A DNA stretch of 64,000 nucleotides. Source: Vicinamibacteria bacterium. Lineage in GTDB: Bacteria; Acidobacteriota; Vicinamibacteria; Marinacidobacterales; Marinacidobacteraceae. Positions within the stretch are counted from its first letter, which is position 1; the number at the start of each line of letters is the position of its first letter. The notes under the pieces are model-generated. The model saw only the letters and a program-made list of their open reading frames with translations, ran no database searches and was not told the origin of the DNA. Positions 2,385 to 61,539 of the stretch are shown piece by piece. The translations under genes and the position numbers were made by a program. Where the stretch lies: contig OZ244068.1 in NCBI GenBank assembly GCA_965215615.1, forward strand, positions 1,159,596-1,223,595, written 5' to 3'.

Positions 2385-2484
2385 ACGAATCCCGGCGGGG
2401 TGTTCCGCTCTCCGCTCCGGATTTTCCTTCCCTTCCTGAAATTTCCCCTACCTTCACCGAGCGTGTTCCTGGAGTATTTCGATC

Positions 2485-3791: not shown

Positions 3792-4231
3792 ACACCAGCC
3801 CGGAAAACGGGAGCCCTCCTGCGCCGGAGCCCGCGGCGCTCCCCGCTCCCGAAGGAAGCCCCACCCGCGCTGCGCCGCCTCCCGCAGTGGAGGTCATCCG
3901 CTCTCTGGAAGCCGATGAGCTTCGCTCCGATCGACCCGAGCTCCGGCCGGGCGATGCCGTCCGGGTGCACGCCACCATCCGGGAAGGGGATCGCGAGCGC
4001 ATCCAGGTGTTCGAGGGGATTCTCATCGCGATGAAAAATGGGGGAAACCGCCGGACGATCACGGTTCGCAAGACCTCTTTCGGGATTCCGGTCGAACGCA
4101 TCTTTCCGCTGCACTCGCCACTCCTGGCCAAGGTGGAAGTCGTCCGTTCGCACCACGTCCGCCGGGCCAAGCTCTACTTCCTGCGCGAGCGGAAGGGCAA
4201 GGCGGCGCGGCTGCGTGAGAAGCGGCGCTGA
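3788..4231 (+). CDS. rplS: 50S ribosomal protein L19, possibly with a roughly 35-aa Pro/Ala-rich N-terminal extension.
   Basis: ...[34 protein letters not shown]...[21 protein letters not shown] matches L19. There is an ATGA overlap with the trmD stop. A canonical-length protein would start near the internal GTG (VEVIRSL). Confidence 0.85.
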
Positions 4232-4245
4232 CCCGGTGCGGCGGT

Positions 4246-4863: not shown

Positions 4864-4880
4864 AGCCTTCGCCCGCTACG

Positions 4881-13679: not shown

Positions 13680-13698
13680 GGAATCGGATGAGTTTCGG

Positions 13699-13771
13699 TG
13701 GACGGCACGGGGATCGAACCCGTGACCTCGGCATTGCGAACGCCGCGCTCTCCCAGCTGAGCTAGCCGCCC
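13699..13771 (-). tRNA. tRNA-Ala, anticodon CGC.
   Basis: Reverse complement GGGCGGCTAGCTCAGCTGGGAGAGCGCGGCGTTCGCAATGCCGAGGTCACGGGTTCGATCCCCGTGCCGTCCA folds as a cloverleaf. It has U8, the G3:U70 Ala identity pair, anticodon loop TTCGCAA, and a T-loop GGTTCGATCC. The 3' CCA is not encoded. Confidence 0.85.
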
Positions 13772-41557: not shown

Positions 41558-41739
41558 TTCCGAAAACCCGCCCCGCCCGCTTGTCTGGGGCCGGCGCGCC
41601 CGCGGTTTCTCCGTGCGCGTTTCAGGCGGATTCGCGCTCTTCGCCTTTCCGGGCGTGAGATCCGTCTCCCAGGGGTGGGGTGTCTGCCGGAACAACTCTG
41701 TAACGACTCTTTTTGAGGGGCGAAGATCGGGAGAAAAAC

Positions 41740-47300: not shown

Positions 47301-48001
47301 TGGCTGCTGCTATCGGCTACTGGTGTGGTCACCGACTTGAGGCGAACGACGATTGTCCACCACCACCGGAAGGATGGCGGGAGGCGGTTCTTCGCGCACC
47401 GGCAGACGAGGCGGGGGTGTCCCAGCATGAGGAGTACTGGCTGAGCCAGGTTTTGTTGCAGGACGGGCGCTTGGCGGAGGAATGGTTGCTGTCAAAATTC
47501 GGCGAGGAAGATCACAATGCCGCATCGTGGAGTGTTGAGCAAATCGGCATCAAGATCCTTCCAGCGTTGGACACGAGACAGCGATCTCGTGTTCTGGCGG
47601 CCATGCGTCCGGGTTTCCATGGCGACGAATTCGTCAGACATCTCGTGGCGAATGATCTTGAGCTTTATCGGGAACTCCTTGGGATCGAGCACCTCGCGCC
47701 ATTTCATCTTTCGCCGCTGGCCGGCAAGCCCGACAGTACAGGTTGGCGCGCCAAGGTGAAACTCGCTCTGGCGAAGGGCTTCGCGATCGAGAAAATCACC
47801 CGAGCGACTCTCGGGCGGTGGAATTCCTGGTCAGGAAACGAAAGCGAGATGTGGGCCGGATGGCGACGCTCGTTTGCTGCGTTGATCGATGACGTCGACC
47901 ATGACGTCGCAAGCATCGGCCAGTATGGAGTCGAGATTACGAAGCGCGATGAGGATCGGACACTTATGGGAGAACGCTACGAAGCAGTACACGGCATGTA
48001 G
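44324..48001 (+). CDS. 1225-aa multidomain protein: XRE-type HTH, Mrr-like (PD-(D/E)xK) nuclease fold, P-loop NTPase, and a roughly 800-aa alpha-helical C-terminal domain. Avs/STAND-like candidate antiphage gene.
   Basis: aa 10-55 ...LKALRLRLGTTQAALARTVGVVPNTLARWERGE... (HTH_XRE). aa 95-200 FEACATDLLRC...GGHDHGFDGTV...LIATTAKD...LFATSRVVTP...VEVTLV (Mrr_cat-like). Walker A LLVGSPGSGKT and Walker B AVILDDAH. Long helical C-terminus. Locally lower GC (about 58%). Confidence 0.6.
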   Translation: MNTTSVDVKHSDLKALRLRLGTTQAALARTVGVVPNTLARWERGELPIPAWAVQRLEAASSAGSSGRAVTRGVVLDPHHKAILDALNADLDPAVFEACATDLLRCRWPTLVAIRGGHDHGFDGTVADPTGHSKFPLIATTAKDLTGNLRRNLRRARELNPALDRALFATSRVVTPRMREKLQDQARDVEVTLVQIYDQDWFALELYRKPEWCKRLLRVTGRPSALSQFPKSQRPVLGDEILGRERVMRWLLERSGDCLLVGSPGSGKTFVLRGLVQQGRALFLVDDDRTQVANDLRELRPPAVILDDAHVDPDRVDWFRHLRQEVGSDARIIATTWPSRASKLRTALGISTDDVRNLDSPDDLIDADTMIEIIKSTGLTGPDELLRCIRLQAPERPGLVATLAYLCRAGDFRQVVSGEALVDQLAPQLEKMIDSDALLHMLAPFALGGDAGVRPERVAGALGKSLFDVSKALARLGPAGILKELPTAADTGIADDLEVSHQAAPVSVVPAPFRWVLVRRIFFGGVGSLPLDRFLALVERTEDALDTLMGARARGAPIPDLEHRLEREAARLPDHSSSRLWSKYASLGPSEARYVVERHPDRLPAVAHEALEQAPESVIPLLLDLLCTGEDARVVDSLPEKPWEILTRWANGSSPGRRDLRHRRSSLLHAANAWRARGGDPNVAIRAMCIALAPGSDYVTVDPGAGRTVTLHHELLIPSHIESLKEELWPSVREAITETGRAPWKNLMDIARGWLNPFLPSGEDVLEEIRLAMRSFGDRLLQDMADVSRIHPGVQHRLKVMAKRAGLDLHVTLDPTFETLYGELEPDEVDEMMRMDSTNSLVETWERQSVQEITRKLKQMESEANLAGIRHPRWSPYLCEQLAMRISNPVVVAELFLDSQLPADLVAPFIRQVVTMNGPRWPEVARRCLGTADYQVLGIQAVLISSSPPPDLLATALGVAKYFPHLIHTFCLRREVPLGTLKTMFHSEDARVAVAAAIGYWCGHRLEANDDCPPPPEGWREAVLRAPADEAGVSQHEEYWLSQVLLQDGRLAEEWLLSKFGEEDHNAASWSVEQIGIKILPALDTRQRSRVLAAMRPGFHGDEFVRHLVANDLELYRELLGIEHLAPFHLSPLAGKPDSTGWRAKVKLALAKGFAIEKITRATLGRWNSWSGNESEMWAGWRRSFAALIDDVDHDVASIGQYGVEITKRDEDRTLMGERYEAVHGM

Positions 48002-48080
48002 CCAACGTCATCGAGCTGGGGTACCTGCACCATGGGCCTCATAGCTCGCGAAATGGCATCCGATGTCGGAACGATGGTGT

Positions 48081-48905
48081 TCACTTTTTTCGGCTATCGG
48101 TCTGCGTGGCGTATTCCCTGAGCGGCAAACGCTGCAATTCAGATGGGGCCGATGGGGCGTCTCGCAGCAGGAACAGCTCGTCATCGAGTCCGTGCCGGAG
48201 GAAATCGAGGCGTGCATTCTCGGTGGCTACGGCCTCCGCAGAGGAGAACACCGCGCGAAAGGGGAACATCCGGGGACCCGAGAGCACGTCTTTCGGCGCG
48301 CCGGCGCGGAGTTCTCGGCTTCTGAGGATCGCCTCCGCCATCCAGGCGAGGAGTTTCGGGTTTTCCATGGGGCGCGCCCCGGCTGGCGCATAGATTCCCG
48401 CACGTTTCGTCTCCGTCAGCACCTTCCATTCCACGAAGGAGCGGAGCACATATCGGGTGGCGCGCTCGACCCCCGGGCGGTCCCCGAACTCTTCCCGGAC
48501 CCGCCTTTGGATGACAGCGGCGGCGACCCGATTCTGAAGTCGGAGTTGCCGTCCGGCGTGCGCCGCGACTGCGCCCCAGAACGGGTAGGCGGCGGCCAGC
48601 ATGCACCAGTGAAGCGCGATCCGATGGGATGCGGGCGAATCCCGCAACAGTCGCAATCCGTCGTCACGGAGCGACTCCAGTCCGGTCGGAACGAGTTGCC
48701 AAGTCCTGATGAGCACGCCGATTGTCTTCATCCGGCCATTCCCGTGGGCTTTCCCGCCTGGAGAGATCTGATCCTGGAGAAAACGGTCGAGTGTGTCGCG
48801 GATTGCTTTCGTGTCGTTTCCCGTCAGCACCAGGCTCGCGGTTTCCTCAAGCCATGGGAGTCGGACGAGTCGGCTGATGCCGACCTTGCGCGCCAGATCC
48901 CTCAC
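48081..48905 (-). CDS. BrxA-like accessory protein (assigned by position as the last gene of a BREX type 3-like operon).
   Basis: Alpha-helical 274-aa protein. ATGA overlap with the pglZ stop. The assignment rests on synteny only, with no sequence motif recognised. Confidence 0.4.
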   Translation of the reverse strand: MRDLARKVGISRLVRLPWLEETASLVLTGNDTKAIRDTLDRFLQDQISPGGKAHGNGRMKTIGVLIRTWQLVPTGLESLRDDGLRLLRDSPASHRIALHWCMLAAAYPFWGAVAAHAGRQLRLQNRVAAAVIQRRVREEFGDRPGVERATRYVLRSFVEWKVLTETKRAGIYAPAGARPMENPKLLAWMAEAILRSRELRAGAPKDVLSGPRMFPFRAVFSSAEAVATENARLDFLRHGLDDELFLLRDAPSAPSELQRLPLREYATQTDSRKK

Positions 48906-50881
48906 GAGGCCGTCCTTCGGATACGGACAAGGGGCACGATGAGTTCCTCGATCGCAGCACCTCCGTGGCAGACGACACTCTCTTCCTTCGCCACGAACGC
49001 TTTCCGTTCCGGCGCGAGCAAGGGAATGAAGTCGGAGGGGAGGCCGGGAGGCACCCAGCGCGCGGAGTCCGGAAACCGGGCTTTGACGGCATTTCGGAGC
49101 GTTTCGTCCGCGAAGATGCGGACGCGCTCTCCGCGGACGTTCGCGAAAACACCTTCAGCGGGAGAGCCGATCCCTTCGGCTTCGATGTTGCCGTGGTCGC
49201 TGGTGAGCCAGATTTCGAACCCCGCCCGCAACAGCAGGTCGAGAAGTTTGACGAGGAATCCTTCGGCCGCCCACTGGCGGACCTGGTTTGCCATGCCTCG
49301 CTCGCCGAGCTGCATGCCGTGCATGATGTCGTCCACGGCGTTCACTACCCATGCCAGCGCCTGGATCTCCTCGTTTGCGAGAAGGGTCTCCGCTTCCCCC
49401 AGCGAGGCAGGCTTGAGATTTCGCTGATAACCGATCTGCTGAGGTCGCAGTCCGCGATCCTGCCAAAAACGCCGCCAATGCCTGGGTTCGGCCGAGGTGG
49501 ACTGGATCGTGTCTCCGAAGAAGTATGGGGGCCGCCCCGCAAACAGCGCCTGACGCGAAACCACTGTCAGGGTTGGCAGCCAGGCGAAGATGGCATCCTC
49601 TTCGAGCTGGAGACCCGGGAGCGTCCCGAGTAATTTCTCGCGAAGCAGTCTCCACTGCCAGAGCGAGAGTCCGTCAAGGACGAGGAGCGCCACCCTCGTG
49701 TTCCGGGTAGCCAGTGCGCCGGGGACATGGTGGAGCATGACTGGCGGAACAGGCGGCAGACTCGCGAGGGATCCGTACTGGTTCGGCAGCCAGTCGGCGA
49801 ACGCGGCATCCACTTGGCGCTCCATTTCGCGAAACCCTTGGCGAACTGCATCTTCCCGTTCGTCCTCAGTGAGGAGATTCGCTCGGGTTTCGGCCCAGGC
49901 GCGGGCGAAGTGCCGCCAAGCGTGGTGGTCCGCGTCCTCGGCGGGAAAGAGTTCTTTCGCGAGCTCCAGACGGCGCTCCGTCAGCGGCCTTCCGGCAGGA
50001 GAGGCGATCCCAGCCGCGGCCCATGTTTCTTCTGATGACGGTTGGTAGGGATGCTCGACGGGAGAGAGGGAGCCTTCCAGGAAGAAGGTATCGAGGTAGG
50101 CCCGGACCCGGGAATCGTCGAACGGAATCTCCGTCGGCCCCGCCATGGCGAGTGGGGGGCGGTCGCCTGATATCCGATCGGAATCGCGCTGGTCGAGGAA
50201 GCGGGGCCAGCGCTCCTGGATGAAATGGAGAAACACCTTCCGATCTCCGACCAGATCAGCAAGCGGCCACTCCTGGAACTGCTGCTTTCGACGCAATCGG
50301 CGCGCAAGCCTCGTCTGGAAGCTCGGGGGAATCGGTCGGTTCCGGTAATGGAGAGCAGCGAGGAGAGCCAGCAGGTCCGCATCGTCGTGGGCATCTTCCG
50401 GGTCGGCCTCGAAAATGCGACGCAGGAGAAAGTCCCGGCTCTCGTTGTCGCCGAGAGATTTCCGACCCGCCTCGTCCTGAATTTCGAAGAGCGATTCCCG
50501 GTCGGTGGGAGCGAGCTCGCGGACGACTCCGCCGCTCAGGCGCGGGAAGAATTCCTCGATGCGGAGGGAAACCCACTCGGCATGGTCCGTGAGATCGAAG
50601 GGCGGTGCGGACGCATCATCTTCCACGACCACCACGAGGTCTGGACGATTTTTCGAATCCCCGAGAGCTCGAATCTGTGTTTCGTAGGCGAAGCGAAAGG
50701 CGATGGGGTCGCCGTCGAGAAAGAGAATCCGGAAGCCGCGCCGCTCCAATGCGCCGAGAATCCCCGCATCGCGAAGCAGGCCGTCGGGATCCTCGGCCAC
50801 AGTTGGCCACGCGAGGCCCGGAATGAACCGGCGGAGGATGGCGGCGGCGAGCGGACGGCCGGGTTCCGGGCCGTTCGTCAC
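48902..50881 (-). CDS. pglZ: BREX PglZ (alkaline-phosphatase superfamily).
   Basis: ...ALLVLDGLSLWQW... and ...WLTSDHGNIEA... are hallmark PglZ motifs. GTG start overlaps the methyltransferase stop (GTGA). The upstream part of ORF ..51007 is rejected. Confidence 0.8.
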   Translation of the reverse strand: MTNGPEPGRPLAAAILRRFIPGLAWPTVAEDPDGLLRDAGILGALERRGFRILFLDGDPIAFRFAYETQIRALGDSKNRPDLVVVVEDDASAPPFDLTDHAEWVSLRIEEFFPRLSGGVVRELAPTDRESLFEIQDEAGRKSLGDNESRDFLLRRIFEADPEDAHDDADLLALLAALHYRNRPIPPSFQTRLARRLRRKQQFQEWPLADLVGDRKVFLHFIQERWPRFLDQRDSDRISGDRPPLAMAGPTEIPFDDSRVRAYLDTFFLEGSLSPVEHPYQPSSEETWAAAGIASPAGRPLTERRLELAKELFPAEDADHHAWRHFARAWAETRANLLTEDEREDAVRQGFREMERQVDAAFADWLPNQYGSLASLPPVPPVMLHHVPGALATRNTRVALLVLDGLSLWQWRLLREKLLGTLPGLQLEEDAIFAWLPTLTVVSRQALFAGRPPYFFGDTIQSTSAEPRHWRRFWQDRGLRPQQIGYQRNLKPASLGEAETLLANEEIQALAWVVNAVDDIMHGMQLGERGMANQVRQWAAEGFLVKLLDLLLRAGFEIWLTSDHGNIEAEGIGSPAEGVFANVRGERVRIFADETLRNAVKARFPDSARWVPPGLPSDFIPLLAPERKAFVAKEESVVCHGGAAIEELIVPLVRIRRTAS

Positions 50882-53649
50882 TGCAGGTTTCTGCGGGTGA
50901 GCGCCTGGTCGTACCACATGAGGAGCTTCGGATCCTCGTGGAGGGCGTTCCGCGGAATCTTGTCTCCTACGGCGAGGATGGTCGCGTCGTCCTTTTTCTG
51001 CCAGCACTCCCGGAAACCGGCGCGGACCGCTTCGAGACGGACCGTGCGGAGATGCCGGGTCTCATCCGATGCGTACCGTCGGAATTCGCGGAGGAGTGCC
51101 CGCTGGCGAAGCATTTCCAATTCCGGCGCTTTCGTTGCGTCCGGGGGATACCAGCGGTGATTCGCCTTGTGCCGTAGCTCGCTGGCTTCCTTGGGCAGTT
51201 TCCTGAGATTCTTGAAGGTCGTGGAGAGCCAGGAGTGGATTAGGCCGGGCACCGGGCCATCGCCTTCGTAGCAGAGGAAGTTCTCTTCGAGCAGGCGCGA
51301 GAGTTCGAGCTGGGTCTCGTGCTTGGCCCAACCACCGATCTCGCGGATGAAGTTCGGGTGAAGCTCCTGGAAGGTCTGCGGTTTCCGCTTGAGTTCGGAA
51401 CGCAGCCAGCGGATCGCGGTTTCCTCGTCTCGCACGACGACGTTCGGCTCGAAAATTCCTTGTGCCCGGAAACGGCGCGTGTCGTAGCGGGGAACCTGCT
51501 CGGGCAGGAAGAACATCCCGTCACGCTCGGGGTAACGCTTGCGGAGCCCGGCGTAGAAATCCGTGGCCGAAAGCGGAACGCTGACTCCGCGCTGGACGTG
51601 GAACGCCACCATGCGGTCGAAGAGCAGAAAGTCCTGCCGCTCCTGCATGACTTCGCTGCGGCCTTCCCGGTCGGCGAAGACAGGCAGGCGAGCGAGGTGG
51701 GCTTCGACGAACTCCCAGGCCCCGCCTTCGGTTCCCCCGACGACGCGGAAGCGCTCTTCCAGTCCACCGTTCGGTTTGTAGGCAGAGATGACGAGATCCT
51801 GCTTGGCAGCGGTGTTGACCGCTTGCTGAAAGGATTTTTGTTTTTTATCCAGTGTGCGGACATCGGCAACGATGAAGCCGGCTGCGCGCATGGCATCCTG
51901 GATGGAATTCCAGACGGCGTTTCTGGAGTTGTGAAAGACAACGGTGATCCAGCGACCCGGCTTGAGAACTCTTCGATATTCCTCGAAACACTGCTCCATC
52001 AGGTGTTTGTAGTCGAGGATTTCCTTGTTTCGAACTCGATCCACGATGGCCTCGGGTGCAGCCTGCGTAAGGACACCGTGCCACGACTCGACGAGGAAAT
52101 TCAGGTCCGCGTAGTAGATATTTTCTCCGAAAGGGGGATCCGTGAATATGTAGTCCACGGAGTTTTTGGGCAGATTCAAAGAGGCGCAGTCTCCGGTAGA
52201 CGCGACGACGGGAGATTTCGCTGGTCCCACCGCCAAGGCTTTGGCCATTCGATGTAGCTTGCCACGGAGGATGTACCACGGATTTACTTCGGCGACTTGA
52301 GAAGAGATATATAAGACTCCAGATAAATATTGGTTAACGTGTGAGTAATGTGTGGGACTGTAACGATTGAGTGTCGACATTCCCCACACTGCCTGTTCGA
52401 TGAGAAACAGCAAGGCGTGTCGAAGTCGAGGATTTTCTTCGGATGTCACTCGATGCCACACAGAGGCGAGAGCGTGTGCTGCCCGTGGCAGGAACATATG
52501 GCGTACAGCGCGGGTGTTCGTGGTTCGCATGCGGCCCACGCGCGTCATCTGGCAGTCGGGCAGTTCTGCTTCCGGAATCTCGGCAGGGAGGGGAAGCGCG
52601 TTGATGCGTTGAAGCAGCTCCAGGTCTTCGGGGTTGGGCTTCTTCTCGAATTTGTCCACGCCATAGTTGATCAGGGCGGGTTTGCGCAGTGGCCTGCGTC
52701 CGGTTTGGCCGGTTGCCGAATCCAGGAAAGTCTCGAACCGAAGATCCATTTTTTCTTTCGTGTTCCTGACTTCGCACTTAGGACATGGGATCGTCTTTCG
52801 AATGGCTTTCGTTTCCGCATCCATGGCCTCCTCGAGGAAAACAATCTCGGCACCGCAATCCGGACACGCGAACACCTCGCTCCACACCGTGTAGTTGATG
52901 CGCGCTTTCGTCCCGTCGGTGTGGCGGGTTTCGTACATCCACCCGACTTCTTCTTCCACTTCGTCCAGCAGCTTCTGCGCGGCATCGGCAAACTCCTTGA
53001 CATCGAACGGGATGTTGTAGTTGGCCGCGATGAAGGTGGCCGCGGGGGAGAGGTCGCCGAGGATGGCCCGGCGCGCTCCCCATTCGGGAAGCTCGCGCCC
53101 GGCGGCGGCCCATTCGGCTTCCAGTTTCTTCCGATACTCCGGAGGCGCGCTGCCGCACCACTGCGCCGCAACGCCGGTCATTCCGGAACCGCAGAAGCCA
53201 TCGAGCACCAGATCGCCCGGCTTCGTGTAGTGGAGGATGGAGGGGACGATGGCGAGGTGCGGCACCTTGGTGTGGTACCCGTGTGCCCGGTAGAGGGCAT
53301 CCGTCTTGCCGACGCTCACGTCCACCGCGAAGGGCTCGCGGTGGTACGGCTCCTCGGGATCGTAAGGATGCCCGTGGAACCGCACGAACTCTTCGAGGAA
53401 CGGGTTTGGACACGCGGTATACCACGGCGGATCGGAAAGCCGCAGGATGTCTTCGTCGCTGCCCTTCGGAAAGTCGGGGCGCGTCCGCAGTTCGGGGAGC
53501 AACTCCCGCAGGCGCTGGAGGTAGTGCTCCCGCCGCTCGTCCTCGGAAGCGAAAGTCCGCCCCAGGCACTTCACCGGGCCGCTCTCCGGTTTCGGTTTCG
53601 TGGATTGGTCAGTCGCGAGGAGCTTCCCCGACTCCGGGCTTCGTGTCAC
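50878..53649 (-). CDS. BREX-associated DNA methyltransferase, alpha-class N6A/N4C (PglXI-like position), with a Zn-ribbon insertion.
   Basis: Motif I ...LVLDGFCGSGMTGVAA... about 340 aa before motif IV ...IFTDPPFGENIYYADL.... The intervening region carries CPDCG...CPKC. About 430-aa C-terminal extension. Confidence 0.7.
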   Translation of the reverse strand: MTRSPESGKLLATDQSTKPKPESGPVKCLGRTFASEDERREHYLQRLRELLPELRTRPDFPKGSDEDILRLSDPPWYTACPNPFLEEFVRFHGHPYDPEEPYHREPFAVDVSVGKTDALYRAHGYHTKVPHLAIVPSILHYTKPGDLVLDGFCGSGMTGVAAQWCGSAPPEYRKKLEAEWAAAGRELPEWGARRAILGDLSPAATFIAANYNIPFDVKEFADAAQKLLDEVEEEVGWMYETRHTDGTKARINYTVWSEVFACPDCGAEIVFLEEAMDAETKAIRKTIPCPKCEVRNTKEKMDLRFETFLDSATGQTGRRPLRKPALINYGVDKFEKKPNPEDLELLQRINALPLPAEIPEAELPDCQMTRVGRMRTTNTRAVRHMFLPRAAHALASVWHRVTSEENPRLRHALLFLIEQAVWGMSTLNRYSPTHYSHVNQYLSGVLYISSQVAEVNPWYILRGKLHRMAKALAVGPAKSPVVASTGDCASLNLPKNSVDYIFTDPPFGENIYYADLNFLVESWHGVLTQAAPEAIVDRVRNKEILDYKHLMEQCFEEYRRVLKPGRWITVVFHNSRNAVWNSIQDAMRAAGFIVADVRTLDKKQKSFQQAVNTAAKQDLVISAYKPNGGLEERFRVVGGTEGGAWEFVEAHLARLPVFADREGRSEVMQERQDFLLFDRMVAFHVQRGVSVPLSATDFYAGLRKRYPERDGMFFLPEQVPRYDTRRFRAQGIFEPNVVVRDEETAIRWLRSELKRKPQTFQELHPNFIREIGGWAKHETQLELSRLLEENFLCYEGDGPVPGLIHSWLSTTFKNLRKLPKEASELRHKANHRWYPPDATKAPELEMLRQRALLREFRRYASDETRHLRTVRLEAVRAGFRECWQKKDDATILAVGDKIPRNALHEDPKLLMWYDQALTRRNLQ

Positions 53650-55481
53650 GGAGCGTCTGATCCTTTCCGCTGGAGCCGTTCCGCCCGGATCGCTGCGCCG
53701 GCCTCGGTGAGCACATATCGCTGGTCGGGCGCACGAGGGCGACCCGGATTCGTCATCCGCACGATTCCGGCATCGAGCAGCGGTTGCAGGTGGGTGCGCT
53801 TGAAGTAGGAGCGGTGTGACGCGCCCAGCCGCTCCATGAGCTCGGCCATGCTCTGCGGGGTCTCGCAGGCACCCACGATCTGAAGTTGTGGGTTCGTCAG
53901 CGCCGACCCGGTCCCTGCCCGAGTGGCCCAGGTAGCCTGATTTTCGCTTACTTGGTCACTCCCCGAGTGACCAAGTAGCTCCTGCCCACAGCTTGCTTGG
54001 TCACTCCTGGAGTGACCAAGTAGTTCCCGCAGATGTCTGGCGGGCCGGTAGTGACCCTCGGCGATCTCCTCAAAGAGCTGCTGGTTCACGAGGCGAGCCG
54101 CCGCCACGCTCGCCTCTTTACGGGTTACGCCGGCGATGACCTGTAGATCCGACAGCGGAAGAGAGGTCCTTCCAACTGCGTAATCCACCATCCGGGCTTC
54201 GGTGTCGTCAAGGTCCACTCCCAGCCGCTGCTCGAACGCCTGCCGTCGTTCTGCGAGCGATACCTGCTCCAGGACCAGCTCGAATCGCTTCCTTCGTCTG
54301 TTGTTCACGATCCGGGGTGGCGGACGGTCCAGTTTCCGCCAGTTGCCGAACATGTCGCGCAACCCCCAGCCGGCGTTTTCGGACATTCCGATCCGGCGGA
54401 AAGCCAGCACGACCCGCGGGTTTCGCTGCTCCTTCTCCCCCGGCTCCAGCAGGTGGGAAGGAGCAACGAAGGCATCTCCCGGATTTCGGAAGATGATCTG
54501 ATTCGGGAAATGGAGGATCTCCGGGTTCCGGCCATGGTCCGAATAGTCCTGGTGCATGATGAGGTTGATCATGGCTTCACGGATCGCGACGAAGTCGGGT
54601 GGCGTGTCGTCCCGGCGAAGCGTGTACGGATCCACCCGGAAGGGGTATTCGGCGATTCGCGGATACCAGGTTTCGACAAGAGAACGCCAGGTGAGGATCA
54701 GGTTGTCATCCATGACCAGGCGATCGAACCAGCGGTCTCCAGTGGCGATTTCATCCCGCGGCATTCCGAAACGCTGGCAGTCCACGACGGGCCGGGGAAG
54801 CAACGAGCGAAACGCTCCGGCAGTTCCGAACAGCAGGACCGCCGCCCGCGTCGAGACGAGTCGCCCCTGGTCGTCGTCCAACAGGCCCAGTTCCCGCAGG
54901 AATTCCAGGTCGTTAAGCCGTTTGAGCGGACGGTTGTCGGTACGTGCCTCGTACACAGCGCGGTACCACCGCAGGCTGTCCTCGTCGAACGCCCGGTCCG
55001 GATCGAGAGGCACCGGCTGGCTTTCCCACCGCTCGGCGGCCGCGTCCACGAGGAAGCGGTCGCGCTCGGCATCAGTGAGCCGGACATCGCTTCCTCCGCT
55101 GCGGACGAAGGCGCGCCGGATGTCGCCGTCGAGGAATACCGGCTTTTCGGACCGGTGGGCTTCGGGGACGTGGAAGATGAGCAGATCCTTGCCCCCGTGG
55201 CGCGCGAGTTGTTCCCGGACGGGGAGTAGCACGCTGATCTTGTTTCGTTGGCGAAGGGTGCTCAGGAAATCGCCCTGCACCTTGTCCACATCGAGCACGC
55301 CGACGACTTCGAGCCCCCCATCGGCCTCGCGAACCCCGAAGACGAGCCGTCCGCCTTCGGTGTTCGCGAAAGCGGAGACCGTTTCGTATGCGTTCCCTGG
55401 AACCTCGCGGCGAGCCTCTTTGAACTCGATGTCGCGCCACTCGTAGGAACCGAGCAGTTTCGCGAGTTCCTGCTGCGTCAC
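53646..55481 (-). CDS. AlbA_2 (Schlafen-like putative DNA-binding) plus HATPase_c_4-like protein inserted in the BREX operon.
   Basis: N-terminus ...YEWRDIEFKEARREVPGNAYETVSAFANTEGGRLVFGVRE... is typical of AlbA_2/'divergent AAA' family proteins. No Walker A. The C-terminus contains a duplicated ELLGHS(R/G)SDQ segment encoded by a palindromic DNA repeat. Confidence 0.55.
   Translation of the reverse strand: MTQQELAKLLGSYEWRDIEFKEARREVPGNAYETVSAFANTEGGRLVFGVREADGGLEVVGVLDVDKVQGDFLSTLRQRNKISVLLPVREQLARHGGKDLLIFHVPEAHRSEKPVFLDGDIRRAFVRSGGSDVRLTDAERDRFLVDAAAERWESQPVPLDPDRAFDEDSLRWYRAVYEARTDNRPLKRLNDLEFLRELGLLDDDQGRLVSTRAAVLLFGTAGAFRSLLPRPVVDCQRFGMPRDEIATGDRWFDRLVMDDNLILTWRSLVETWYPRIAEYPFRVDPYTLRRDDTPPDFVAIREAMINLIMHQDYSDHGRNPEILHFPNQIIFRNPGDAFVAPSHLLEPGEKEQRNPRVVLAFRRIGMSENAGWGLRDMFGNWRKLDRPPPRIVNNRRRKRFELVLEQVSLAERRQAFEQRLGVDLDDTEARMVDYAVGRTSLPLSDLQVIAGVTRKEASVAAARLVNQQLFEEIAEGHYRPARHLRELLGHSRSDQASCGQELLGHSGSDQVSENQATWATRAGTGSALTNPQLQIVGACETPQSMAELMERLGASHRSYFKRTHLQPLLDAGIVRMTNPGRPRAPDQRYVLTEAGAAIRAERLQRKGSDAP
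53950..54023. repeat. Two tandem copies (46-bp period) of a 28-bp palindromic element CTTGGTCACTCC(CC/TG)GAGTGACCAAGTAG inside the AlbA_2/HATPase gene.
   Basis: Seen directly: copies at 53950..53977 and 53996..54023. Each copy is a perfect 11-bp-arm inverted repeat. In frame, it encodes ELLGHSRSDQ...ELLGHSGSDQ. Confidence 0.8.
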
Positions 55482-55485
55482 CGTT

Positions 55486-58400
55486 TCACTCCAGGACGAT
55501 GCGGACTTTCCCGGGAGATCGCCCTTGGGTCAGATCCCGAACGTACCCGTCCATCCGCTCTCGTAGTTGATCGGGGGTCGCCGGGACTCCTCCGGGGAAC
55601 AGGGCCTTTGCCATCAATTCCCGGGTGGTCGTGACTTTTTCGAGACCCCGCAGGGCGGACCGGATCGCTTCGATCAGCGAGTCTTGGGATCTCCGGGGAA
55701 GTTGCCGGGATTCGAGCGTTTTGATGAATGCGTCGATCGCGGCCTGCTGTTCGGTGGAGAGCAGCGTCCGACTCTTCTGGACGATGGGATCTCCAAGACT
55801 TGTCAACAGGGTTTCGATCCAGCGAGTAACGAGCTGATCGAGATCCCGTTCGAGATTGTCGAGGCTCGACTCCACCGCAACCGTAACCGTGGATTCTGCC
55901 CCGATGCGGAAGGAGCAGTGAGGACAGATCGGGTTCTTCTCGAAGTCCTGGGAAGTTGGCCCCGCGCACTCCCGCAGGCCCCTCAGGCCCGACTCGATGT
56001 CCACGAGATCCTGCCGCCGCAGCAGTTCGATTTCGGCAAGCCGCGAGAGCGTCCGCAGTCGTTCGTGCCGGAGGAGTTCGTCCCGTCGCGCCGCTTCCTT
56101 GGATCCCAGCCGCGCCTGACGATGGGCGGTCAGATACAGAGCCTCGTAGTCCTTCCGGAGTGCTCCGAGTCGGGTCTGGAAATCCCGGTGGAATGTCGGG
56201 TCGGTCCGATTCGCCGGCTGGCGGGCCGCAGTCAGGAATTCCTGCTGGGCCTTGCGGGCGGGAGCGATCCAGGAATGGTCCGCTGGCAGCGCGAAGAGTG
56301 CCTCGGAAAGCCAGGCGGCCGTTCGCTGAAACAGCATGGCGAGGCGGGAGATTGCATCCACTTCGGTTCGCGCGGCGAGTCCGGATTCGTGAGCCTTCAC
56401 CGCATCCGCTTCGTGGCGAAAGTTCTTGAACTTCGCCGGTGTGTTGAAGACCTGGAGGGATTCGAGAAATGCCCTGGTTTTCCCCACCGCCTCGTCGAGG
56501 CTCTCTGCTTCTCCTGCCTCAAAGAGGCTTTCGCCCCAAAGCAGGACTCGCCGGTGGATCGCTTCTCCGGCTCGGGCCAGAGCCTCGACCTGCTCCGCGA
56601 TGGCTTTCTGGATTTGCTGGACGGCTTCGTTTCTGGCCTTCGTTACCTGAAGTGCCACCCCGGCGGGCAGGCCCAGCATCTCCACGAGCGCCGTGATGCC
56701 GGGGAGGTTCCAGTCCTTGGGGCGGGCGAAGTGCTGGAAGGCCCGTAACTCGGACAAAGGAGTGACCGCAAGGTCGGAGAGGTTCAGCGCGTCACATTTG
56801 CGGCCGCCCGGCAGCGTCAGAACCACGTGTCCGGAGTGGACGAGGGCGGCCAGCAGCACGACGACCCAATCCGGCTCGAGCCGCATGCCGCCGTGATCGA
56901 AATACTCGACATCCCGCACTTTCTCGACCAGTACTTCATCCCTGCCCACGACTTGTGCCGCGGGTTTGGCGTGCAGGATTTCCAGCACGGCTTTCGCGTA
57001 GCGAGACGAATCCGGCCGAATGTCTCCTCCCACCAGGAGTTCAAGCCCGGCGAGGATCGCCCGGGCCTGACGGGTCGGCTGCCGCCCGGCGATCATTCCC
57101 AGAGCGTCCCGGGCCGCTTGTTCGCGACTGTCCTTCGTGATGAGAACACCGAAGGTCGGGTAATCCGGAGCGGTGTCGCGAAAATGTGCTTCGAGGCAGA
57201 TCGGAGCAACGGCATGCACCACGTCGGAGAAGGGGATGCGCTCCTCGGGATTGGTACCCGAGAGGTTTCGGATGGAACGTCCTCTCGCCCATGCGCCCAT
57301 CTTCGCATTCCGCCCCGCGCAGGTCACGTGGTAGCAGTCGAGCATGTTTTTTCGCAGGAGTACCCCAAGCTCCCGGAGGGACTCCTCGGCCTTGTCCTGG
57401 TAGATCCGCTTGTGAGCACCGGACGACTGCGCCGCGAGGGCCTCCGCTCCGGCGAAGCGGGCGATCGCCTCCCGAAGCCCTTCGGCCGTGAGGTCGAGGC
57501 GGAAAAACACCTCGTCAGCCTTCTTCTCGTCGGTGAAGCGGGGAGGTTCGAACGGTTGCAGGAAGTAGAGGTAGAAGTCGCGGGGAGGGGCTGCGGTCGA
57601 ACGTTCGTTGGGAGCTCCGAAGAAGAGATAGCCGGGGCGCTCCGTGTTCCGCTCGGCCCAGGTCAACTGGTGCTCCCATATCCGGAACCCGGGCACATGG
57701 GCTTCATCCTCCCGGACGTCCATGAGCCGGATCAGCGCCCGGTAGTAGTAGCGGTCGAGCTGGGAATGGTCGAGACTTTCGGCGCGCGCTTTGATCAGGG
57801 CATCGAAGTCGTCCGTCTTGCGGAGATCCAGGTAGTACTGGCCGTTCCGGGGATTTTCGGTGATGAACTGGCCGCTGACCGTGCGGTGGATTTCGCGCAC
57901 TGCCGTCGCGACCATGGTCTCGAGGTCCAGCGCCGGATCCCCCCCGAGTTCTTCGACACCGGGCTGGTAGAGGCAAAGCGCGTCCCGAAGTTCGGCGGGG
58001 GCGGCTCCGATGCTCGCGTGGATGTCTCCGGTTGTCAGCCGATGGACCGAGAGGGCGTGGATGATCCGGATCGCGAGAGGCTCGTATTGCCGACGGGAGT
58101 AGGCATTCCGGACCCGGGATTCGAGGACTTCACTACAGCGGATGACCTCCCGAATGTCGGGAATGGCTCGAAACGAAGCGTTTGCGGTCAAGGTCTCCCA
58201 ATAGCTGTCGTAGGCCACGAGGCCAGGCTCGGATTCGGGAACTTCGACATCGAGCATCGCCGCCATCGCCAGCGAGAACGTCTTCAGGACTTCCCGCTTC
58301 TCCACGACGGCAAGCCGCTCGAAGGTCCTGATGAAGTCCGGGTGGATGGGAAAGAGGGCGACGTACTCGTCAAGCGATTCGTTGAGGCGGCCGTAGAACT

Positions 58401-59235
58401 TCCCGAATGGTTCGAGGTGTTGCCGGATTCGCGCTCGCTGCTCCGGGGTCTTCTTGAGGAGCCGTTCAGCTACCACGTACTGAACATCGGTTCGGGCGAT
58501 CAGCACCTGCTCGAACCGGTCCCTGACCCGGCGGACGGAATCGGCGGCGAACGCGAAGCGTTGGCTGTCGAAGATGGCTTCCTGCACTCCGGCCACGAAC
58601 CGCAGGCGCAAACCGGAGCAGCTCTCCGCGAGTTCGCGGAGGAAGTTCAGGTCGAGGATGAGTTCCTGGTCCTTGCGGGAGCGGAGGAAGTCCAGCAGTT
58701 CGTCCACGACCAGGAGCAGCCCCTGGTCCGGGAAACGCTCGTGGAAAGCCGCCATCATTTCCTCGAGACACCGCTTGTTGTTCGGAACCGCATCGGCATC
58801 GGGAAACGCGTAGGCGACTCCCAGTTCATCGAGGCGGCGCTCGAGTTCTCCCACGAGAATCTCGCGGAGCGGCATTCCGGTAGCACCGATCTCCGTTCGC
58901 GCAACCTGGAAGCGGCCGGCGACCTGGGTGATGGCTTCCCTGACTTCGGGATTCGTGAGCGAGGCGGCCAGGTCCGCGTTCTCGGCGACAGACGAGAGCA
59001 CCGCCATCAGGTGGGATTTGCCAGTTCCGTAATTGCCGACGACCAGCAGTCCCTTGTGATCCGCCGGATTCTCGAACTGGATCTGCGGAATGGCGAGACC
59101 GACCAGCGTGGATGCGAGGTCGGGCGAGATGACGAAGGACTCGACGAGATTTCGGGCGTTTTCTGCGTCGCTTGCATCCCGGAGCTGGATGACCGACTCG
59201 ATTGGCTCGAACTGGACGAGATCGCGGTACTTCAT
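55486..59235 (-). CDS. brxC: BREX P-loop ATPase BrxC/PglY.
   Basis: N-terminus MKYRDLVQFEPIESVIQL...; Walker A ...LLVVGNYGTGKSHLMAV...; Walker B ...LLLVVDELLDF.... About 1250 aa with a C-terminal CPHC. Start at the internal ATG, overlapping the upstream stop (ATGA). Confidence 0.8.
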   Translation of the reverse strand: MKYRDLVQFEPIESVIQLRDASDAENARNLVESFVISPDLASTLVGLAIPQIQFENPADHKGLLVVGNYGTGKSHLMAVLSSVAENADLAASLTNPEVREAITQVAGRFQVARTEIGATGMPLREILVGELERRLDELGVAYAFPDADAVPNNKRCLEEMMAAFHERFPDQGLLLVVDELLDFLRSRKDQELILDLNFLRELAESCSGLRLRFVAGVQEAIFDSQRFAFAADSVRRVRDRFEQVLIARTDVQYVVAERLLKKTPEQRARIRQHLEPFGKFYGRLNESLDEYVALFPIHPDFIRTFERLAVVEKREVLKTFSLAMAAMLDVEVPESEPGLVAYDSYWETLTANASFRAIPDIREVIRCSEVLESRVRNAYSRRQYEPLAIRIIHALSVHRLTTGDIHASIGAAPAELRDALCLYQPGVEELGGDPALDLETMVATAVREIHRTVSGQFITENPRNGQYYLDLRKTDDFDALIKARAESLDHSQLDRYYYRALIRLMDVREDEAHVPGFRIWEHQLTWAERNTERPGYLFFGAPNERSTAAPPRDFYLYFLQPFEPPRFTDEKKADEVFFRLDLTAEGLREAIARFAGAEALAAQSSGAHKRIYQDKAEESLRELGVLLRKNMLDCYHVTCAGRNAKMGAWARGRSIRNLSGTNPEERIPFSDVVHAVAPICLEAHFRDTAPDYPTFGVLITKDSREQAARDALGMIAGRQPTRQARAILAGLELLVGGDIRPDSSRYAKAVLEILHAKPAAQVVGRDEVLVEKVRDVEYFDHGGMRLEPDWVVVLLAALVHSGHVVLTLPGGRKCDALNLSDLAVTPLSELRAFQHFARPKDWNLPGITALVEMLGLPAGVALQVTKARNEAVQQIQKAIAEQVEALARAGEAIHRRVLLWGESLFEAGEAESLDEAVGKTRAFLESLQVFNTPAKFKNFRHEADAVKAHESGLAARTEVDAISRLAMLFQRTAAWLSEALFALPADHSWIAPARKAQQEFLTAARQPANRTDPTFHRDFQTRLGALRKDYEALYLTAHRQARLGSKEAARRDELLRHERLRTLSRLAEIELLRRQDLVDIESGLRGLRECAGPTSQDFEKNPICPHCSFRIGAESTVTVAVESSLDNLERDLDQLVTRWIETLLTSLGDPIVQKSRTLLSTEQQAAIDAFIKTLESRQLPRRSQDSLIEAIRSALRGLEKVTTTRELMAKALFPGGVPATPDQLRERMDGYVRDLTQGRSPGKVRIVLE

Positions 59236-59750
59236 GGCTGGCTGCTTTCCATGCCGGTTTCGAGAGAGATCAGCACCAGGTCTTCGGTTGGGTAGGCCCG
59301 ATGTTCCGGATGCCCCGGCGTTGCGCACCTGAGGAGTCCGCCGGAAACGGAACCGGGCCATGAAGCGATGATCGCCTGATCGCGTGAAAGCCCCTGGAGC
59401 AGGGCGAGGGGGTTCGACTGCAGTTGCGGTTCGAAGAGCACTTCGAGATTGTCGAGCAGGGCCGGCTCTCCCGCAGCGGCCAAGGTGTCGCGGGTGATTT
59501 CCAGAACGCGCAGCGGCCGCTCCTTCATGGGAACGTCGAGGAGTCGCCGGGATAGTTCGATGCCCAGATTCACCGGATCACGGCCGGTTCGTTTGCCGAC
59601 TTCCCGAAGGCAGCGGCTCTTTCCTGCGCCTCGCGGCCCGACGAGCAACACGAGTCGATGGCGCAGGAGAGGAAGTTCCGGAATTCGGGCGAGTACTTGT
59701 TGAGCGGCTTCGGCCGTCTGATGCTGAAGAAGGGGAGGCATCAATTCCAT
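59232..59750 (-). CDS. brxF: Small P-loop NTPase, BrxF-like (BREX type 3 first gene).
   Basis: 172 aa with Walker A ...LVLLVGPRGAGKSRCL.... Immediately upstream of brxC with an overlapping stop/start. Confidence 0.55.
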   Translation of the reverse strand: MELMPPLLQHQTAEAAQQVLARIPELPLLRHRLVLLVGPRGAGKSRCLREVGKRTGRDPVNLGIELSRRLLDVPMKERPLRVLEITRDTLAAAGEPALLDNLEVLFEPQLQSNPLALLQGLSRDQAIIASWPGSVSGGLLRCATPGHPEHRAYPTEDLVLISLETGMESSQP

Positions 59751-59772
59751 GGGAAGGGGCGGAGAGTATCCG

Positions 59773-60033
59773 CTACCGGTGTCGTTTCCTGTCCGGTCTT
59801 TGAAGATCGTACGTGGCTTGCCGGCGTAGCCAGAACTCAGCGTTGGACCACCCGGCTTTTTCGAGCTGAATCGCCATCTCCGGGGGAATTGCCGCGTGGC
59901 CGTTCAGAACTCGCGAAAGGGTATGACGGGCTATGTCCAGGAGCTGCGCTGCCTCGGTCACGCGCAACCCGAGCGGGTTCAGGCAGTTTTCGCGAATGCT
60001 GCGACCAGGGTGCGGAGGATTGCTCAAGGGCAT
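59773..60033 (-). CDS. HigA-family XRE HTH protein (antitoxin-like) with no adjacent HigB. Probable regulator at the head of the BREX-like operon.
   Basis: ...[72 protein letters not shown]... is a strong HigA signature. It sits 22 nt upstream of brxF and 33 nt downstream of the symporter stop. Confidence 0.7.
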
Positions 60034-60066
60034 GGTTTCAGTGGACTGTCCTGTGGGGAGCGAACC

Positions 60067-61539
60067 TTATCCCCGCATCAGGTATGGCTCGACGCGCTCC
60101 GGCGGGGGTGGCGCGGTGCGGAGCGAGACGAAGATCAGCGCCAGGACGTTCGCTGCTGCGCCGTAGATGCCCGGATGGATGTCGAGAAAGGCGAACTGCG
60201 GCCAGAGGTTCAGCGCGAGCGCGACTGCACAGCCGGCGAGGAGGCCCGAGATCGCGCCCTGCCGGGTGGCTCGCTTCCAGCACATCGCTGCGATCAGCAG
60301 CGGGAAGAACTGCGCAATGGCACCGTAGGACATGAGCAGCAGTCCCACGAGCGAAGCCTCGGTCCCGATGGCGAGGTAGTAGGCGAGCGCCCCCATCCCG
60401 ATCGCGGTCAGTCGGATGAGCCGGGTTTCGGATGCCTGGTCCCGCTTCCGGCGGCGGAACGGCCGCTCCAGATCCCGGACCAGTACCGAAGCGCCGGCGT
60501 GGAGGATCGCATCGCCCGAGCTCATCGAGGCGGCGAGCGCTCCGGCGCAGAAAAGCCCGATGGCGATCGCCGGAAGCTCGAGGTCCATCAGCATCGTCGG
60601 CAGGATGGTGTCCGACGGGGAGATTCCGGGGTACGCGGTGATCGCCGCGAATCCGATCAGGAGCACCGGGATCAGGAAGATCTGGAAGGTGGGGAAGAAG
60701 ACCACCATCCGCTTCAGCGACCGGATGCTGCGCGCGGCGTAGATTTTCATGAAGTAGTGCGGCCAGACCGAAAATCCGAGGATGGAGACGAGGATCGCAC
60801 TCGAATAGGCCCCGTGGGTCCAGGCCGCGCCGTCCGGGCCGAGTCCGGGGGCGACCAGCATTTCGGGAACGGAGGCCGCGAGGTCGTCGAACATCGGGCC
60901 GATCCCGCCGTGGAGCTTGTACGGCAGGTAGAGGCCGAGCACCCAGGCGAGCCCCAGCATCAGGACACCCTGGAAGGTGTTGGTCCACCCCACGCCTACC
61001 ACCCCGCTCCGGACCACATAGATCAGCACGACTCCGTAGGCGAGCGCCGCGCCCGCCCATTCCGGCATCCGCCCCTCGGTTACCACCGCGAAGACGTACC
61101 CCGCGCCCTTCATCTGGATGACGAGGTAGGGGACGAGCGAGACCGCGCTGATGACCGCCATGATCGCGGGGATCGCCCTTTCGCTCTCGAAGCGGTGGGC
61201 GAAGAACTCGGCCTGGGTGACGAAGCCGAACCGTTTGCCGAGCAGCGCGATGCGCGGCCCGAGGAAATACCAGGGGATCAGTCCCACGGTTCCGTAGGAG
61301 ACGATGTAGAAGGCGGCGGCCCCCCGGGAGTACGCCCAGCCGGGAGCGCCGAGGAAGGCGAAGGCGCTGTAGATGGAAGCCCCCATCACGAAGTAGAGGA
61401 CGAGGAAGCCGAGATTCCGATCCCCGGCGACGTAGCCTTCGGGAGTGTTCGAGGCTTGCCGTCCGGAGAAGAGCCCCACCGCCAGCGTGGCCCCGAGGTA
61501 GGCGAGCGTGGTCAGGAAGACGACGAGCCAGGGGGCCAC
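60067..61539 (-). CDS. Sodium:solute symporter family transporter.
   Basis: About 13 TM segments with SSF motifs. ATGA overlap with the upstream small subunit gene. Confidence 0.75.
   Translation of the reverse strand: MAPWLVVFLTTLAYLGATLAVGLFSGRQASNTPEGYVAGDRNLGFLVLYFVMGASIYSAFAFLGAPGWAYSRGAAAFYIVSYGTVGLIPWYFLGPRIALLGKRFGFVTQAEFFAHRFESERAIPAIMAVISAVSLVPYLVIQMKGAGYVFAVVTEGRMPEWAGAALAYGVVLIYVVRSGVVGVGWTNTFQGVLMLGLAWVLGLYLPYKLHGGIGPMFDDLAASVPEMLVAPGLGPDGAAWTHGAYSSAILVSILGFSVWPHYFMKIYAARSIRSLKRMVVFFPTFQIFLIPVLLIGFAAITAYPGISPSDTILPTMLMDLELPAIAIGLFCAGALAASMSSGDAILHAGASVLVRDLERPFRRRKRDQASETRLIRLTAIGMGALAYYLAIGTEASLVGLLLMSYGAIAQFFPLLIAAMCWKRATRQGAISGLLAGCAVALALNLWPQFAFLDIHPGIYGAAANVLALIFVSLRTAPPPPERVEPYLMRG

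Follow-up and report, generated by a model that had tools for sequence, protein, structure and literature searches.

A type 3 BREX operon, probably intact, with the helicase-less, Schlafen-bearing sub-architecture

Background

Type 3 BREX, termed 'less explored' in a 2026 NAR survey (PMC12839542), has the canonical gene order brxF-brxC-pglXI-brxHII-pglZ-brxA (Goldfarb et al. 2015, to which both PMC12839542 and PMC10799925 refer). The BrxHII gene is frequent in these loci without being universal: it occurs in just 77% of type 3 BREX, and helicase-less type 3 loci make up about 23% (PMC12839542). The same source describes proteins that join a Schlafen-type RNase to a minimal histidine kinase and a winged helix-turn-helix (wHTH) domain and sit within BREX and BREX-related loci of at least 1017 taxa, and it catalogues them as embedded 'backup effectors'; the accessible part of its supplements makes no mention of Schlafen, SLFN or AlbA. 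Prokaryotic Schlafens have the catalytic motif Ex4(E/D)xK, with HisKinase-HTH fusions ranking second among their architectures (19.2%); of seven proteins tested, two defended, namely a DUF262-Slfn protein and an Ig-like fusion (Taboada et al. 2025, preprint, 10.1101/2025.07.24.666596). A further gene embedded in type 3 BREX, that of BxaP, gives abortive-infection-type defence alone and is rare, being found in 0.29% of BREX-carrying MAGs (PMC10799925).

Gene content and layout of the operon

An open reading frame check of the window, the 64-kb stretch of DNA analysed here, placed seven genes on the minus strand within 48081-60033, at the coordinates originally predicted. From the upstream end they are:

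59773..60033, minus strand, HigA-family HTH gene: 86 aa; TIGR02607 83 bits (cut-off 47.7), PF01381
59232..59750, minus strand, brxF: 172-aa small P-loop protein; NF033453 BREX_3_BrxF 149 bits (cut-off 50), PADLOC BrxF 140 bits
55486..59235, minus strand, brxC/pglY: 1249-aa DUF6079-type ATPase; PF19557 1516 bits, PADLOC PDLC02482 1641 bits
53646..55481, minus strand, Schlafen (slfn) gene: 611 aa; PF04326 SLFN_AlbA_2 49 bits (cut-off 25.3), PF13749 HATPase_c_4 38 bits (cut-off 26), PF21247 Fic-like_C wHTH 48 bits (cut-off 27)
50878..53649, minus strand, pglXI (BrxXI): 923-aa predicted alpha-class N6-adenine methyltransferase; PADLOC PglXI PDLC02541 1278 bits (profile 10-916 of 919), PF01555
48902..50881, minus strand, pglZ of type 3: 659 aa from GTG 50881; NF033449 623 bits (cut-off 250), PF08665 69 bits
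48081..48905, minus strand, brxA: 274 aa; PADLOC BrxA PDLC02444 255 bits (profile 1-249 of 251)

As had been predicted, the genes are closely packed and mostly overlap; start and stop share 4 nt at four junctions, and the other two junctions are gaps of 4 and 22 nt:

HTH gene to brxF: 22 nt
brxF/brxC: ATGA overlap
brxC to slfn: 4-nt gap, with GGAG upstream
slfn/pglXI: GTGA overlap
pglXI/pglZ: GTGA overlap, provided that pglZ starts at GTG 50881
pglZ/brxA: GTGA overlap

One or more Pfam, NCBIfam or PADLOC profiles matched each of the seven proteins, in every case over the full length; for BrxA, neither Pfam nor NCBIfam profiles gave a match. All seven original assignments (HigA-like HTH, BrxF, BrxC/PglY, AlbA_2/HATPase, alpha-class methyltransferase, PglZ and BrxA) were right by these matches, with the 172-aa, 274-aa and 923-aa proteins falling into the BrxF, BrxA and PglXI families rather than into unrelated ones. 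The PF19557 match covers the whole profile (1-1238 of 1238) and begins at residue 43 of the 1291-aa open reading frame 55486-59361, and therefore the true brxC start is ATG 59235, which gives 1249 aa against the roughly 1250 aa predicted. Counted from this start, the BrxC Walker A motif GNYGTGKS lies at residue 67 (residue 109 of the longer frame); BrxF carries its own Walker A motif, GPRGAGKS, at residue 38. The open frame of pglZ reaches upstream to 51007 (48902-51007). A scan of 47800-60600, which takes in the operon and its upstream end, returned no promoter-like sites, and terminator-like sites occurred at chance level.

The locus thus resembles type 3 BREX in its BrxF, DUF6079-type BrxC, PglXI, PglZ-3 and BrxA proteins, which match type-3-specific profiles, and five of the six signature genes stand in the canonical order, in agreement with the original reading. 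It differs in two respects: the window has no BrxHII gene, and a Schlafen gene is added between brxC and pglXI. The lack of BrxHII and the embedded Schlafen have each been described before (PMC12839542), and the view that the gene content is non-canonical and unlike any known subtype has to be given up. Together, these results make it highly probable that this is an intact type 3 BREX of a recurrent helicase-less sub-architecture, brxF-brxC-slfn-pglXI-pglZ-brxA, with a HisKinase-HTH-class Schlafen gene placed between brxC and pglXI. The arrangement is known, and the locus is a further instance of it rather than a new system.

The methyltransferase is a canonical PglXI

PglXI carries FCGSG at residue 152, CPDC at 262, CPKC at 289 and DPPF at 504, so that the four cysteines of its target recognition domain (TRD) insert (C262, C265, C289 and C292) lie between FxGxG and DPPF. 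The alpha-class motif order with a CxxC...CxxC insert is therefore present as first described, but it is no peculiarity: FxGxG, the four-cysteine insert and DPPF are near-invariant in 42 PglXI sequences, and a TRD insert with a four-cysteine zinc finger is a hallmark of type 3 methyltransferases (PMC12839542). The full-length PADLOC match and the conserved motifs identify a canonical PglXI and rule out a non-PglX oddity.

The BrxHII gene is absent from the window

The predicted absence of BrxHII was borne out within the 64-kb window, where tblastn at E<=1e-3 gave no match to the BrxHII of locus L014, a query verified by PADLOC (1535 bits). The usual position of brxHII is between pglXI and pglZ, and these two genes overlap here. 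The genome may carry a BrxHII gene outside the window. The AlbA_2/HATPase gene, now assigned as Schlafen, does lie inside the operon, but it does not occupy the BrxHII region as had been suggested: its slot is brxC/pglXI and that of BrxHII is pglXI/pglZ, which rules it out as a positional replacement.

We recovered 80 related loci and counted BrxHII and Schlafen genes in the 35 that were fully visible, a sample biased towards relatives of this PglZ. BrxHII was absent from 23 of these 35, and 17 of the 23 had a Schlafen/HATPase_c_4/wHTH gene after brxC. The remaining six helicase-less loci had no Schlafen gene, and the loci with BrxHII divided into two with and ten without one. A neighbour-joining tree of PglZ distributed the helicase-less Schlafen-bearing loci over at least five separate clades in different phyla, with one large helicase-less clade supplying many of the counts.

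Since one of the six canonical type 3 genes is not in the window, the operon might be a decaying, non-functional remnant left after helicase loss. We regard this as very improbable. The BREX genes that are present match their profiles over the full length and retain intact motifs, translational coupling is kept, and the helicase-less layout is maintained between loci of different phyla whose PglZ proteins are 35-45% identical, which implies long-term selection. An intact, helicase-less type 3 BREX is the reading that we retain.

The embedded Schlafen gene

The Schlafen protein consists of an AlbA_2/Slfn nuclease domain (residues 14-135), a HATPase_c_4, minimal histidine-kinase-like domain (317-401) and a C-terminal winged helix (541-592). 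Its Ex4(E/D)xK motif reads E14-WRDI-E19-F-K21, and neither E14x4E19xK21 nor the GHKL-like residues vary among 16 homologues linked to BREX-3 and 40 from databases. The nearest homologues (72%, 63% and 57% identity) sit in the same operon type. Homologues that carry an organism name derive mostly from Acidobacteriota MAGs. The family profile matched PDB entries 2kyy (E=2e-11), 3lmm and 4rgl, and SLFN5/8/14 weakly (E about 6e-3). Because the AF2 model was poor (mean pLDDT 60, and below 50 over residues 1-142, the nuclease domain), the predicted Schlafen fold draws its support from sequence profiles.

In its AlbA_2/Slfn domain with Ex4(E/D)xK, its HATPase_c_4 domain, its winged helix and its defence context, the protein is like the HisKinase-HTH Schlafens of Taboada et al. 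(10.1101/2025.07.24.666596), whereas its gene is translationally coupled within a BREX operon. It is unlike the experimentally validated prokaryotic Schlafens, whose sensor domains are Ig-like and DUF262. BxaP offers a precedent for autonomous modules in BREX-3 variable slots, being likewise a non-core gene inside a type 3 operon; the BxaP protein is unrelated to Schlafen, and its slot lies between pglXI and brxHII.

How firmly the Schlafen protein belongs to the BREX machine was considered against the related loci. One reading makes it a core subunit, integral to the system, that takes over the function of BrxHII and defines a distinct helicase-less BREX-3 subtype, in which sensing by BrxC and PglZ is coupled to RNA cleavage and not to DNA translocation. 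Schlafen presence is indeed associated with BrxHII absence in the 35 loci (Fisher p=0.003), but the test is uncorrected for phylogeny, the large helicase-less clade weighs heavily in it and the sample is skewed as described. The slot is fixed, with slfn following brxC by 1-11 nt in all 18 loci measured and overlapping pglXI here and in 10 of 17 others, and Schlafens of two lineages, divergent (identity about 25%) and each with AlbA_2, HATPase_c_4 and wHTH domains, share it. The association and the constant spacing after brxC go slightly beyond the literature that we found. Against a core role, BrxHII and Schlafen coexist in L013, L066 and L073, six loci have neither, the two genes use different slots, and an RNase and a Snf2 motor are biochemically non-interchangeable. 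Moreover, proteins of this type are also associated with other kinds of BREX and with BREX-related systems (PMC12839542), and for 69.6% of prokaryotic Schlafen genes a known defence gene is found within 10 kb (10.1101/2025.07.24.666596); such linkage fits a portable module. We therefore consider it unlikely that the protein is an integral subunit standing in for BrxHII, and no better are the chances of the evolutionary version of this idea, that the Schlafen/GHKL-like/wHTH protein is no portable cargo and is a co-evolved core subunit of a type 3 sub-lineage that gained its effector role upon loss of the Snf2 motor BrxHII. Were it a core subunit, the result would be a BREX variant that acts by RNA cleavage coupled to BrxC/PglZ sensing.

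Proposed mode of action

The scheme suggested here draws on the studied BREX types and on Schlafen proteins. In the literature we found no experiment on a whole type 3 BREX system, so that the roles given here to the proteins are extrapolated from types 1 and 2. PglXI would methylate adenine in a host-specific motif read by the zinc-finger TRD insert, and the ATPase BrxC, PglZ with its phosphodiesterase/nuclease fold, the DNA-binding BrxA, and BrxF would stop the replication of unmethylated incoming phage DNA, a block that in this locus would operate without a Snf2 motor. We suggest that the Schlafen protein may serve as a second-layer effector, whose GHKL-like and wHTH domains would sense infection or BREX failure and whose Ex4ExK nuclease would then cut tRNA or other RNA and cause growth arrest. 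To our knowledge, no activity or trigger is known for Schlafens of the HisKinase-HTH class.

For the field the locus changes little, being one more intact case of a computationally catalogued BREX-3 sub-architecture. Its main worth is as a compact experimental candidate, with six BREX genes and the helicase absent, which could show whether type 3 BREX can do without a DNA motor, and whether the Schlafen embedded in it belongs to the BREX machine or forms a separate abortive-infection layer.

The HigA-family gene and the neighbourhood

The HTH gene is separated by 33 nt on its upstream side from the stop of a sodium/solute symporter gene and by 22 nt on its downstream side from brxF; with these two neighbours no HigB toxin gene adjoins it. 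The operon is thus headed by a toxin-less HigA gene, as had been noted, but this is no conserved head: the gene was found upstream of brxF in none of 14 related loci with visible sequence there and is also absent in L087/L088, which rules it out as a conserved BREX-3 head gene. The protein is 83% identical to many HigA proteins of about 98 aa; the likeness stops at residue 77, and the open reading frame is about 12 aa shorter.

A small HTH gene heading a defence operon recalls BrxR and the C proteins of restriction-modification systems, and the HTH protein might accordingly be a dedicated transcriptional regulator of the BREX operon; unlike BrxR, which has a WYL domain, it belongs to the HigA family (TIGR02607) and is unconserved with BREX-3. 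The gene lies on the brxF strand, immediately upstream, and in L012, L022 and L053 the equivalent place is taken by a small HTH gene from a different family (HTH_17), which makes a small regulator there not unusual. Its absence from the related loci, the very large family of near-identical HigA proteins in other contexts (for example, beside AbiE) and the shorter C terminus, divergent past residue 77, speak against a dedicated role, as does the neighbourhood of the gene, where an inverted-repeat search gave no operator-like palindrome and no promoter stood out. A dedicated regulator is accordingly a possibility that we doubt, and the gene is probably a neighbouring orphan antitoxin-type regulator rather than a conserved BREX-3 component; it may, or may not, have an effect on how the operon is transcribed.

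The window contains a single tRNA gene (13697-13771), which at about 30 kb from the island gives no integration-site clue. One neighbouring protein, P0001, has 1225 aa. An Avs4-like STAND NTPase gene adjoins the BREX operon and shows the segment to be a small defence island.

Gene content of the operon

Searches against Pfam, NCBIfam and PADLOC profiles assigned all seven minus-strand ORFs in 48081–60033, whose coordinates and strand are as originally predicted, and matches to the BrxF, BrxC, PglXI, PglZ and BrxA profiles bear out the proposed identification as a type 3 BREX system:

59773–60033, minus strand, HigA family HTH protein (TIGR02607, 83 bits, cut-off 47.7; PF01381)
59232–59750, minus strand, BrxF (NF033453, 149 bits, cut-off 50)
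55486–59361 (ORF), minus strand, BrxC/PglY, DUF6079-type (PF19557, 1516 bits, profile 1–1238 from ORF residue 43)
53646–55481, minus strand, Schlafen gene slfn, with profile matches to SLFN_AlbA_2, HATPase_c_4 and a Fic-like_C winged helix
50878–53649, minus strand, PglXI (PADLOC PDLC02541, 1278 bits, profile 10–916 of 919; PF01555)
48902–51007 (ORF), minus strand, BREX-3 PglZ (NF033449, 623 bits, cut-off 250)
48081–48905, minus strand, BrxA (PADLOC PDLC02444, 255 bits, profile 1–249 of 251)

Inspection of start codons placed the start of brxC at ATG 59235 (1249 aa), in an ATGA overlap with the brxF stop, and revealed GTGA overlaps at slfn/pglXI and pglZ/brxA; pglZ likely starts at GTG 50881 (659 aa), in a GTGA overlap with the pglXI stop. 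The gap between brxC and slfn is 4 nt, and 22 nt separate the end of the HTH gene from brxF.

The operon had been put forward as a possible new variant. That claim did not hold, as the methyltransferase insert, the missing BrxHII helicase and the embedded Schlafen gene are each covered by a survey of all BREX types (NAR, January 2026; PMC12839542), and the locus is a further example of a documented helicase-less, Schlafen-carrying type 3 sub-architecture.

PglXI methyltransferase

The methyltransferase motifs described in the original prediction were all seen in the window PglXI (FCGSG at 152, CPDC at 262, CPKC at 289 and DPPF at 504), and FxGxG, the four cysteines and DPPF each occur in 40–41 of 42 aligned PglXI sequences. 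This alignment agrees with the published 'defining hallmark' of type 3 methyltransferases, which are distinct from PglX: a TRD insert of ~250 residues in the Rossmann fold, paralleling alpha-class N6-methyltransferases and bearing a conserved four-cysteine Zn finger cap (PMC12839542). The insert-encoding part of pglXI (window ~51700–52900, residues ~250–650) has a G+C content of 0.44–0.57, against 0.60–0.71 elsewhere in the gene, and residues ~300–500 are the least conserved (mean identity 26–32% versus 43–72%, over residues 51–923); both features would fit a specificity domain that is exchanged or evolves fast. A second motif, SDPP[Y/W], lies N-terminal of FxGxG (window 53422–53436, residues 72–76), with S-D-P-P invariant in 42/42 sequences and followed by Y or W in 41/42; it is additional to the catalytic-looking DPPF at 504.

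HigA-like gene

The HigA-like protein shares 83% identity with the ~98-aa HigA proteins of a very large family, but its similarity to these homologues ends at residue 77, followed by an unrelated tail (window 59773–59802), and the ORF ends ~12 aa earlier than they do; this divergence may mark the junction of an inserted defence segment. A sodium/solute symporter gene stops 33 nt before the HigA-like gene starts, which leaves no room for a higB gene. A close database homologue, P0243, sits beside AbiE genes with no toxin gene called next to it, and among the related loci with visible upstream sequence, a HigA-like gene precedes brxF in 0/14. We therefore regard it as a neighbouring gene whose regulatory relevance is uncertain and not as a system component, and the idea that HigA is a conserved head gene of such operons falls away. 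Small HTH genes of a different family do occur at this position: a ~70-aa HTH_17 (excisionase/MerR-like) gene lies directly upstream of brxF in three loci of one helicase-less clade (L012 2154–2369, L022 670–924 and L053 719–985), and a degraded copy lies there in L061.

Absence of BrxHII and the variable slots

BrxHII had been predicted to be absent, and a tblastn search of the 64-kb window yielded no match, the query being a BrxHII from a related locus (L014 7102–9987) verified beforehand against PADLOC (1535 bits). A PglZ scan restricted to one genome per species gave 80 related loci from many phyla (PglZ 35–45% identical), onto which the window proteins, BrxHII and some recurrent cargo genes were placed by tblastn. 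Where found, BrxHII is a ~950-aa gene directly upstream of pglZ. It is reported in 702 taxa, or 77% of type 3 systems, leaving about a quarter without it (PMC12839542).

This mapping revealed two variable slots, brxC–pglXI and pglXI–brxHII/pglZ, the latter holding accessory genes that often span several kb. Its cargo includes an OLD-family/Gabija-like ATPase, for which PADLOC gave Old as the best match, as well as PDC-S19 and an AAA+ ATPase beside an apparent subtilase-type (S8) peptidase, the identity of which was read by eye. The ~362-aa PDC-S19 gene recurs in this slot (L003, L004, L029, L036, L042, L060 and L079; 72–83% identity between loci) and may correspond to BxaP, an accessory gene described in PMC10799925. 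Several of the related loci that lack the helicase carry, directly upstream of pglZ, a short stretch with a match to only the N-terminal ~35–130 residues of BrxHII (L060 9792–9947, L029 9793–9981, L011 1596–1802, L035 2204–2308, and three copies in L017), a region described as a Tudor domain (PMC12839542); these stretches could be either deletion scars or retained mini-proteins.

Schlafen gene

Prokaryotic Schlafens share the catalytic motif Ex4(E/D)xK, and HisKinase-HTH fusions are their second most common architecture (19.2%; 10.1101/2025.07.24.666596). The window protein carries E14-WRDI-E19-F-K21; neither E14-x4-E19-x-K21 nor the GHKL-like residues E302, N306, D336, G365, G371 and G373 vary among 16 BREX-linked and 40 database homologues. 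The family profile matched an AlbA_2 structure (2kyy), the uncharacterised 3lmm and a Fic C-terminal wHTH (4rgl), and, weakly, SLFN5/8/14.

The window order brxF-brxC-slfn-pglXI-pglZ-brxA, with pglXI abutting pglZ, recurs in related loci L022, L046, L048, L050, L053, L054, L058, L059, L062, L065 and L080, and around a 63%-identical Schlafen homologue (L087); the contexts of 72% (L086) and 57% (L088) homologues are operons of the same type. The L086 annotation gives pglXI and pglZ as a single 1590-aa product (2042–6814), likely owing to a sequencing frameshift where the two genes overlap by 4 nt, since contig coverage is only 1.74x; the alternative is a real fusion. The brxC–slfn spacing is 1–11 nt in 18/18 loci examined, in most of which slfn overlaps or abuts pglXI. 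Two Schlafen lineages with ~25% mutual identity, each combining AlbA_2, HATPase_c_4 and wHTH, occupy the slot, and a neighbour-joining PglZ tree spreads the loci that have Schlafen but no helicase over at least five distinct clades and, in addition, a large helicase-less one.

Counts of loci (n=35) with the whole brxC-to-pglZ stretch visible
BrxHII present: Schlafen present 2, Schlafen absent 10
BrxHII absent: Schlafen present 17, Schlafen absent 6

The two genes are thus negatively associated (Fisher p=0.003), in a test that ignores kinship and a sample skewed to relatives of this PglZ. We found no such relation described for type 3 in the literature, and this association, together with the constant close coupling of slfn to brxC, is what may be new here. 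Both would allow the Schlafen protein to be a co-evolved subunit of a helicase-less BREX-3 subtype, which we nevertheless consider unlikely: BrxHII and Schlafen occur together in L013, L066 and L073, both are missing from six loci, each has a slot of its own, and the same Schlafen architecture is also found with other BREX types and related systems. Substitution of BrxHII by Schlafen is a modest, testable side hypothesis. Embedded Schlafen proteins have been read as backup abortive effectors (PMC12839542), and BxaP, another gene embedded in type 3 BREX, defends on its own (PMC10799925), providing a precedent for autonomous modules in the variable slots.

Proposed mechanism

The analysis shows which families the genes belong to, that their ORFs are intact and coupled and carry conserved motifs, and that the layout recurs; the operon's mode of action can be proposed by analogy with studied BREX types. 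PglXI would mark host DNA by methylating adenines in a motif that its TRD recognises, BrxC, PglZ, BrxA and BrxF would exclude unmethylated phage DNA, and the Schlafen protein would form a second layer acting through RNA cleavage and growth arrest, as also proposed in PMC12839542. This layer might be released by an infection signal sensed via the GHKL-like and wHTH domains. We hold this account with moderate confidence only, because type 3 BREX is 'less explored' (PMC12839542), we found no experiment on a whole type 3 system in the literature, and HisKinase-HTH Schlafens lack a demonstrated activity or trigger, anti-phage activity having been shown for two other prokaryotic architectures (10.1101/2025.07.24.666596).

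A probable Avs-like neighbour

The operon lies within a segment of lower G+C content (0.52–0.65 versus 0.65–0.69 in the flanks), bordered by a TonB-dependent receptor gene (41713–44205) and the symporter gene (60067–61539). The segment holds just one further gene, in its lowest-G+C part:

44324–48001, plus strand, 1225-aa protein, convergent with brxA

The protein has an N-terminal HTH (residues 13–56), beyond which no Pfam, NCBIfam or PADLOC family matched, a conserved RGGxDDGFDG block, a Walker A motif (GSPGSGKT) at 261 and a helical solenoid of ~850 aa. Its homologues, ~1200 aa long, number more than 300; the two whose surroundings were inspected lie in defence islands, among restriction-modification, GmrSD, AbiE, OLD-like and reverse-transcriptase genes. 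Among solved structures, an AF2 model of residues 61–1225 (mean pLDDT 80) best matched Avs4 bound to a phage portal (8dgf, Foldseek E=1.5e-9), with alpha-solenoid proteins ranking next. The protein is most likely an Avs-type STAND NTPase, probably one outside PADLOC 2023 coverage, which would make the segment a two-system defence island.
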